Shown here one piece after another: positions 17,766 to 18,772 of a stretch of 18,772 bases of DNA (positions are counted from its first letter, which is position 1; each line of letters starts with the position of its first letter). The stretch comes from a virus. Lineage: Duplodnaviria; Heunggongvirae; Uroviricota; Caudoviricetes. A program made the position numbers and the translations under genes. The stretch lies in IMG/VR virus record IMGVR_UViG_2718218139_000014; one strand, written 5' to 3'. The notes under the pieces were generated by a model, which did no database searches, was not told the DNA's origin, and saw nothing but the letters and a program-made list of their open reading frames with translations.

Positions 17766-17783
17766 AACCCGCTTCGGCGGGTT
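17766..17783. terminator. Bidirectional rho-independent terminator between convergent PrtN-like and YafO-like genes
   Basis: AACCCGC-ttcg-GCGGGTT hairpin preceded by AAAAAA and followed by AGTTTT; overlaps the YafO-like stop codon. Confidence 0.55.
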
Positions 17784-18216
17784 AGTTTTCATCTTTATAA
17801 TTCTGGGCAATTCGCGCCAGATAGCTCATCACATCATGTTTTCTTGCTTTTTCATGTGCATCGGGATACATAATAGCAATGAGTGAATATTTATTCTCAT
17901 AAAGCTCACCTTGGACATACACAAGACAAGCATCATTATCAGGATCACCTTTCTTGCAGACCCTATCCGGTTGTGGAAGTTTCTCGGGAAACTTGTTTGG
18001 CGGTAGACAAAGATGGATATGCATCAACCCAGCCCGAAAAGCACCATAAGGCTGAGTATACGCAACGTCCCTACCGAAATAATGCGGAAGCTCACCGGTT
18101 GCTTTGTATCTCTTGAAATCATCAATGATAGAAGACTCTAGCTCCGGGAATTTGAGAAAAACTTCATCAAAAAATTCAGCTCTAGTTTCTGGATTAATAG
18201 AGACTTCTAGATGCAT
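17782..18216 (-). CDS. YafO-family toxin (ribosome-dependent mRNA interferase-type), 144 aa
   Basis: DDFKRYKATGELPHYFGRDVAY...HIHL...LVYVQGELYENKYSLIAIMYPDAHEKAR parallels E. coli YafO (DFISYKRDGVLPDIFGRDALY...HIHL...LVYCQG...LIAIL.PEPHKLAR) from memory. Confidence 0.75.
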   Translation of the reverse strand: MHLEVSINPETRAEFFDEVFLKFPELESSIIDDFKRYKATGELPHYFGRDVAYTQPYGAFRAGLMHIHLCLPPNKFPEKLPQPDRVCKKGDPDNDACLVYVQGELYENKYSLIAIMYPDAHEKARKHDVMSYLARIAQNYKDEN

Positions 18217-18232
18217 GGTCGTCCGCTATCGG

Positions 18233-18772
18233 TTAGTGAAATTGCATCGATTTTAGCTTATTTGATGTGTGACTAGCTAGTGCTGCAATTCCAGCAAGAT
18301 CCGCGCGCCCGCTAAAAGTAACAGTTTCTTTAAATATGCTCTTTATGTAATTGTTAAGGCGAGTGACAGATGAGCGAGCTTTAGCAATATGACGCCAGTA
18401 AACCTTCAGTTCTGACCTGATAAATTCAGGCAGAGGCGATTCAATTGTACGCTTCACTTCTTCTTCAAAAGCACGCAGGAACATTTCGCATGCCTCTGTC
18501 GTATCTGTCCCGTTTTTGGAAACAAACTCGCGAGCATCTTGGCTATTAAGATCAATCAAACAGATATAGTAGTCATCTGCTGCAATTGTTAACTTTTGCA
18601 AGATCTCCTTACCCTCTTCCATTTTGCGTGAGAATTCCTCAACAGAAGGAGAGTACTCAAAAGGTTTAGCAATCACAGGGGCTGGCTGGATGATGAACTC
18701 CTGCGCCATAGCAGCAGGACAAGCCAGAGGCCCGCACAATGCAGCAAAAGTAATGGCGTTAAACGGATTCAT
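18233..18772 (-). CDS. Unknown protein (179 aa or longer), immediately upstream partner of the YafO-like toxin gene; 5' end may lie beyond the window
   Basis: Open frame reaching the window edge (an ATG occupies the last 3 nt); stop is 16 nt upstream of the toxin start; no family recognised; does not resemble the YafN/Phd-type antitoxin in size or sequence. Confidence 0.45.
   Translation of the reverse strand: MNPFNAITFAALCGPLACPAAMAQEFIIQPAPVIAKPFEYSPSVEEFSRKMEEGKEILQKLTIAADDYYICLIDLNSQDAREFVSKNGTDTTEACEMFLRAFEEEVKRTIESPLPEFIRSELKVYWRHIAKARSSVTRLNNYIKSIFKETVTFSGRADLAGIAALASHTSNKLKSMQFH

Follow-up and report, generated by a model that had tools for sequence, protein, structure and literature searches.

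A prophage cassette that pairs a YafO-family toxin gene with an unannotated, possibly exported partner: a candidate toxin–antitoxin or abortive-infection module

Among the described systems closest to the locus discussed here is yafN-yafO, a type II toxin–antitoxin (TA) pair of the dinB operon of Escherichia coli K-12, and a survey of BECR toxin families gives PF_YafO simply as antitoxin-then-toxin (Gerdes 2025, PMC11980606). In the same survey ToxM/ToxR is presented as the first candidate for a type II module associated with the membrane. Prophage YafO genes have also been reported as orphan toxins without an antitoxin (see, for example, PMC10449497), and in a Photorhabdus TA survey (PMC13617665) YafO is given as a class. 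Our subject is a two-gene cassette at positions 17782-18772, on the minus strand, of IMG/VR virus record IMGVR_UViG_2718218139_000014 (Caudoviricetes), whose whole stretch of 18,772 nucleotides (nt) we call the window: a gene for a YafO-family toxin, preceded by a gene for a protein of 179 amino acids (aa) that we call the partner. We take the cassette to be a self-contained prophage moron of two genes, and would put at roughly 0.55 the probability that it forms a TA or abortive-infection-type module with the partner as the cognate neutraliser of the toxin, because of the fold of the toxin, the gene order, the tight spacing, the faster evolution of the partner, the mobility of the pair and the stronger translation signal of the partner gene. 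The partner, at about 180 aa, would then represent an antitoxin-like family not described before, possibly exported or membrane-associated.

As in yafN-yafO, the partner gene lies upstream and the toxin gene downstream with a short gap between them, and the two toxins share the Pfam family PF13957, 36% identity (over 117 aa, E 2e-19) and the same invariant His, Arg and Tyr residues. The differences are to be found in the partner, which has 179 aa against the 97 of YafN, no Phd/YefM-type similarity, no DNA-binding domain and a signal-peptide-like N-terminus, and in the setting, which is a prophage and not the dinB operon. Like ToxM-ToxR (PMC11980606), this is a module built around a RelE-superfamily toxin for which membrane association and a role in defence can be proposed, but in ToxM-ToxR it is the toxin that bears a transmembrane segment and the antitoxin that is cytoplasmic, whereas here the toxin is soluble and the hydrophobic N-terminus sits on the partner. 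With lambda rexAB and other lysogen-expressed defence morons the cassette shares its moron slots, including one beside a CI-like repressor, its own promoter and terminator, and a two-gene form in which one component is seemingly directed to the envelope; there is, however, no relationship of sequence or fold, and the effector is a predicted RNase rather than an ion channel. The HigBA systems with a SecB-like chaperone (toxin–antitoxin–chaperone, TAC) also join a RelE-superfamily toxin to control by the protein-export machinery, but they need three genes, the chaperone stabilising a cytoplasmic antitoxin, whereas the present cassette makes do with two and has no chaperone, its presumed tie to export being the signal-like segment that the partner itself carries.

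The toxin gene (17782-18216, minus strand) encodes 144 aa, of which residues 35-141 match positions 1-100 of the 101 in the PF13957 (YafO_toxin) profile, at 76.5 bits against a cut-off of 25, so that formal search upholds the YafO-like toxin gene recognised in a first-pass annotation of the window. Its structural model, with a predicted local distance difference test (pLDDT) score of 95, resembles the RelE/HigB toxins and has the RelE/BECR fold, and an alignment of 30 homologues with K-12 YafO contains 16 invariant columns, among them H66-I67-H68, R85, Y100 and H121, some of which may be catalytic. Since the protein scores 75.8 bits with the YafO equivalog model of NCBIfam (NF007377), below the cut-off of 153, it belongs to a distinct YafO subfamily and is not an orthologue of K-12 YafO; it also has a conserved N-terminal extension that the K-12 protein lacks. 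We predict the toxin to be an mRNA-cleaving RNase and, presumably, toxic; it has no match among the defence models of PADLOC-DB v2.

The linkage of this toxin to its partner is invariant over every locus examined. When the search was seeded with the partner, the toxin was present in all four genome loci (Phytobacter, Enterobacter and two Pantoea) and in all 42 viral and metagenome loci, starting in the latter 11-16 nt past the partner stop codon (stop to start, measured on representatives), and even for the most distant partner representatives a PF13957 gene came next in three cases out of three. When it was seeded with the toxin, a Pfam-less gene of 176-186 aa stood upstream in each of eight contexts (Photorhabdus, Gilliamella, Yersinia, Providencia, Rahnella and three metagenomic lineages), and all six of these eight upstream genes that were tested align with the partner or match its profile. 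The pair is found as well in coliphage HK639 (genes 17 and 18), in Pseudomonas phage YMC11/02/R656 (gp093 and gp092) and in the Klebsiella phage-plasmid pJN2-26 (0104 and 0105), and both genes are intact in 48 of the 48 complete E. coli genomes that carry the module, at no less than 99.6% identity. Many of the loci counted are near-identical copies from E. coli, and the comparative argument rests on about 24 distinct pairs. Across those pairs the distance matrices of the two proteins correlate (Mantel r=0.84, a value reached in 0 of 5000 permutations), and in 99% of comparisons it is the partner that has diverged further, with a mean divergence of 0.66 vs 0.45 for the toxin. The adjacency, with gaps of 3-20 nt, persists as partner identity falls from 100% to about 17%, through Enterobacterales, Orbaceae and Pseudomonas phages. 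Such co-divergence lends indirect support to the idea that the partner may neutralise the toxin directly. Two single copies deserve a mention of their own: in a Serratia-like metagenomic copy (L059, 2501-3501) both frames are truncated, the partner to 135 aa and YafO to 69 aa, which points either to decay of the cassette or to a fault of assembly, and E. coli SX12 has a second copy on a 55.6-kb extrachromosomal record (NZ_CP142787.1, 30251-31241), which may represent the prophage in an excised or plasmid-like state.

The pair travels together through very different surroundings. In the window, in the identical copy of a complete E. coli genome (L001) and in Phytobacter it occupies the attachment (att)-proximal end of a dusA-integrated lambdoid prophage, while elsewhere it lies between tail assembly, tape-measure and minor tail genes (L004, L005, L013 and HK639), in a baseplate module (L007), beside genes of tail fibre and lysis (L010), immediately after a CI-like repressor (L061) or near cI (Pseudomonas phage YMC11/02/R656), in an Arc/Ant immunity-type (immI-like) region (L069), downstream of antiterminator Q (L070) and, in one case, in a non-phage setting (L006). 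Its hosts include E. coli, Salmonella, Citrobacter, Pantoea, Serratia, Yersinia, Photorhabdus and Gilliamella as well as Pseudomonas phages and coliphage HK639. The cassette is thus mobile as a unit and behaves as a lysogen-expressed moron, and several of its slots are places where prophages keep defence genes. In Yersinia (L013, 1328-2176) it comes right behind a ParD-ParE pair and a further parD-like gene, within the tail module of a myovirus, and these together form a small TA or defence islet.

The partner gene (18233-18772, minus strand) and the toxin gene are separated by a 16-nt spacer (18217-18232), within the range of 3-20 nt found across 18 loci, and the arrangement is that of a type II TA operon: bicistronic, closely spaced and with the partner upstream. 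Downstream, the hairpin AACCCGC-TTCG-GCGGGTT (17766-17783, equivalent to L001 6367-6384) overlaps the toxin stop codon by 2 nt and scores as an intrinsic terminator on either strand, with the T-run TTTTTTG on the minus strand and a weaker run on the plus strand; this bidirectional terminator closes a pair that is convergent with a plus-strand operon of early-left type comprising Ea22/DUF551, a 3'-5' exonuclease and a PrtN/excisionase-like gene. Upstream, a promoter-like TTGACC-17-TAGACT lies 54-82 nt before the partner ATG, outside the window and visible in L001, and is recognisably kept in other species and loci; it and the ribosome-binding site of the partner gene are all of the cassette that lies beyond the window edge. 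With a single promoter-like site and a single terminator, the whole comes to less than 1.1 kb. The first-pass annotation had proposed just this layout, namely an autonomous module with a partner 16 nt upstream on the same strand, convergent with the early operon and closed by a bidirectional terminator, and the autonomy is now supported by the promoter-like site and by movement between unrelated prophage slots. The translation signals in the enterobacterial clade are unequal: the partner has GAGGT followed by ATG, vs a weak Shine-Dalgarno sequence for the toxin (in the window, GGA before an ATG), and in four of six loci examined (L003, L004, L005 and L038) the toxin starts with GTG, the ATG being found in E. 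coli and L006. Neither a small upstream open reading frame conserved beyond closely related DNA, as a third component would be, nor any Rfam family in the window or module was found, and a match to isrK at the terminator (E 0.15) was judged to be chance. In the tail-module insertions a conserved TTACC-N5-GGTAA palindrome stands upstream of the partner promoter (L004, about 3790-3810, and the equivalent place in L005) and is absent from the att-proximal copy of E. coli; an operator is one possibility, a terminator belonging to the gene before the cassette another.

On one point the first-pass annotation was wrong, since it held that the partner start was cut by the window edge. The ATG occupies bases 18770-18772, the final three of the window, and in L001 it is preceded at 5 nt by a GAGGT Shine-Dalgarno sequence and, 14 codons upstream, by an in-frame stop with no start codon between; RefSeq WP_001067896.1, annotated as hypothetical, is exactly the 179-aa protein. 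The worry that the upstream frame might be a fragment of some longer, unrelated gene is put to rest by its completeness and by the co-occurrence analysis, and the suspicion that it was unlike the YafN/Phd-type antitoxins proved correct, for there is no similarity to YafN (BLASTP E 1.7) and no Pfam PhdYeFM match. Domain and structure searches lead to an unannotated family, PHROG 8416 (unknown function): nothing rose above chance in Pfam, NCBIfam, PADLOC or the PDB sequences, and the structural model found generic helical neighbours only. We set aside as chance-level the matches to DUF5076 (E 0.12), to EndoDuHalo and a luciferase-like monooxygenase (E 0.12) and to EnvC in the PDB (E 0.26), together with a 13-bit PADLOC match to 'CRISPR-T'. 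The family is small, with 22 clusters at 90% identity in a search of 5.8 billion proteins and 23 clusters at 50% identity in a profile search of 1.8 billion representatives. All sources call it a hypothetical protein, save for a RAST-derived label, 'YafM antitoxin', carried by two ECOR prophage records and one Pectobacterium paper. That label is a name given by context. The yafM gene of K-12 is one that we take to be unrelated to the partner. No description of the partner was found in the literature, and on these comparisons it stands outside any described antitoxin family.

What sort of protein is it? The AlphaFold model (pLDDT 78.9, of moderate confidence, from a shallow alignment of 23 sequences) has an N-terminal helix at residues 6-24, disorder at about 25-43 and a five-helix bundle at 44-174. 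Codons 1-24 (18701-18772, minus strand, as for the other segments) encode a signal-peptide-like hydrophobic segment, MNPFNAITFAALCGPLACPAAMAQ, which is uncharged and apolar, with a Pro at position -5, ahead of an A-M-A at -3 to -1, and an acidic residue next. Directly after this putative cleavage site comes a conserved motif, (E/D)FIxQPAPV (codons 25-33, 18674-18700), then a variable, disordered linker (codons 34-45, 18638-18673; pLDDT below 50 at residues 30-36; mean identity 30%), and finally the helical bundle (codons 46-179, 18236-18637), which ends in a conserved hydrophobic residue and His (QFH in the window). In the enterobacterial clade alignment the N-terminal segment is nearly invariant, with 82% mean identity, and it is the most constrained part of the protein, the ratio of nonsynonymous to synonymous differences (pN/pS) being 0.185 there, 0.247 in the motif, 0.395 in the bundle and 0.73 in the linker. 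Because synonymous differences are abundant (pS 0.585 in the N-terminal segment), the constraint acts on the peptide and not on the DNA, and an att site or regulatory element is ruled out as its cause. A cytoplasmic isoform begun at Met22 was likewise rejected, as there is no Shine-Dalgarno sequence before that codon and codons 2-24 are under strong purifying selection; so was a lipoprotein, as inspection found no canonical lipobox before Cys13 or Cys18.

By inspection and simple hydropathy, 32 of 33 members have a signal-peptide-like N-terminus, commonly with a small residue at position 23, and distant homologues carry at the same position classic signal peptides with n-, h- and c-regions, for instance MNLSLRSCLAVVLFGGVLSVPSFSA (followed by G) in the Photorhabdus homologue and MKNQVKNQSKASGALMASLLALSMGMTAS...VQA and MKSAKRQPFAVQAALTLALGVSASFMHVAA (each followed by S) in metagenomic members. 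In the E. coli clade the n-region lacks basic residues and hydrophobicity is modest, the Kyte-Doolittle maximum being 1.83 over 11 residues and 1.45 over 19. The one branch without such an N-terminus is instructive: the phage-plasmid homologue pJN226_0104 matches the helical domain only, begins with a basic, non-hydrophobic stretch and still precedes a YafO gene, and since it does so we would regard the helical domain as the YafO-associated element, with the N-terminal module apparently an add-on. That member shares the C-terminal hydrophobic residue and His (18236-18241 in the window), which 23 of the 33 members have; some of the others end in LVS, LA or AS, and all of these ends look like possible protease recognition tags. 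Lon recognises SulA through a C-terminal Tyr-His, and the likeness of the partner's end to that element is one that we treat as a lead only. In addition, the mature part of 25 of the 33 contains just one Cys, left unpaired, as would be expected of a cytoplasmic protein a little more than of a periplasmic one.

Several of these features weigh against the partner being a neutraliser in a TA or abortive-infection module. Neither Pfam and NCBIfam nor the model revealed a DNA-binding domain or a known antitoxin fold; no defence model among the known anti-phage systems of PADLOC-DB v2 was matched; the N-terminus looks, family-wide, like a cleavable signal peptide, and efficient export would carry the helical domain into the periplasm, away from a cytoplasmic RNase; and even as a signal peptide it seems odd in the E. 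coli clade, where the n-region is uncharged and the conservation far exceeds what is usual. A small antitoxin with a DNA-binding domain (ribbon-helix-helix, helix-turn-helix, AbrB or Phd/YefM) and a toxin-binding tail is not what the partner is, and its signal-like N-terminus, the absence of a DNA-binding domain and a size about twice the usual make it less than obvious to read it as a plain type II antitoxin.

If the partner does neutralise YafO, the scheme that we favour is the following. The operon would be transcribed from its own promoter in the lysogen, and the well-translated partner would be kept in excess over the poorly initiated toxin, its precursor binding YafO in the cytoplasm through the helical domain. 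Free cytoplasmic partner would be short-lived, being drained by export or membrane insertion through its N-terminal segment, degraded by way of its C-terminal hydrophobic-His end, or both; the conserved C-terminus and the export-like N-terminus may be hints of such lability. Once synthesis stopped, through phage-induced shut-off or loss of the element, YafO would be freed, mRNA would be cleaved and the cell arrested. The boldest element here, namely that the antitoxin owes its cytoplasmic instability to Sec export or membrane insertion and not to proteolysis alone, is one that we regard as speculative.

How do other explanations fare? One is that the partner is an exported envelope protein, such as a superinfection-exclusion factor or a periplasmic sensor, and no inhibitor of YafO at all. 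The coupling might then run the other way, with failure of Sec export or of the proton-motive force during infection causing precursor to accumulate and YafO to be triggered or released, or with YafO tuning the expression of the partner. Much of the N-terminal anatomy speaks for this: the n/h/c architecture with a small-x-small site near residue 23 in almost every member, the strongly basic n-regions of distant members (MKNQVKNQSK..., MKSAKRQ...), the acidic first residue typical after the putative site and the N-terminal helix detached from the bundle in the AlphaFold2 model. Small lipoproteins are, moreover, neighbouring morons in L004, L005 and HK639. However, a cytoplasmic RNase without a known inhibitor would be lethal, yet every one of the E. 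coli copies is intact; a branch of the partner family is without the hydrophobic N-terminus and still pairs with YafO; and the lone Cys of the mature part and the SulA-like end suit a periplasmic life somewhat less well. All told, we think this explanation unlikely.

A conventional cytoplasmic type II TA pair, in which the N-terminal segment is a toxin-binding or oligomerisation element, nothing is exported and the pair serves prophage addiction, not defence, strikes us as equally doubtful. Ordinary signal peptides are not the most constrained part of their proteins, as these 24 residues are, and the E. coli-clade segment has only modest hydrophobicity and no basic n-region, while gene order, spacing and the faster evolution of the antitoxin are classic type II features. 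Against this stand an 18-residue, all-apolar, Pro-containing stretch that runs into A-x-A, where toxin-binding helices are amphipathic, the retention through divergence of precisely the tripartite form of a signal peptide, and the absence of a DNA-binding domain for autoregulation. That there is no functional interaction, and that two unrelated morons, one without recognisable function, simply hitch-hike together, is very improbable indeed, given that a gap of 3-20 nt survives even where partners share only about 17% identity, that the pair occupies no fewer than five different genomic slots and that the distance matrices correlate.

A few observations on the surrounding prophage may be useful to others. 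It is integrated at dusA, an intact copy of which (3024-4061, minus strand) adjoins the integrase end, and a displaced 105-nt 5' fragment of dusA (L001 7576-7680) lies about 200 bp past the partner gene, just outside the window; the YafO cassette is therefore the last gene pair before the attachment site. Two IS3-family copies (orfA/orfB) of 1275 bp each, at 4954-6228 and 12267-13541, are 100% identical and inverted, and one abuts a truncated phage integrase (4150-4956) while the other abuts a C-terminal fragment of tail-tip protein J (11420-12415). Because they adjoin these fragments, the prophage is to be seen as a remnant left by rearrangement or deletion; its relatives, PhiR40_1 for one, measure about 42 kb. 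Between the two copies lie three tandem NleG-family type III effector genes (6985-8997, minus strand), dinI (6576-6824), a tail fibre gene (9375-10694) and lom (10753-11391). Finally, the gene at 17456-17755 (plus strand), annotated as 'pyocin activator PrtN family', matches PHROG 1300 'excisionase' (E 2.5e-40) and stands at the far end of the prophage from the integrase; it is probably the Xis of the phage.

What, then, does the pairing mean? One YafO subfamily is always accompanied by one specific protein of about 180 aa, and this defines a probable new TA or defence cassette. If the signal-like N-terminus of the partner is functional, control of the toxin would be exercised by localisation and not only by proteolysis, and an RNase effector would be linked to the cell envelope. 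Moreover, if the antitoxin really is destabilised by export, the YafO switch would be coupled to continued synthesis and to the state of secretion or of membrane energy in the cell, making the cassette an envelope-coupled abortive-infection module and the first TA pair with an exported antitoxin.

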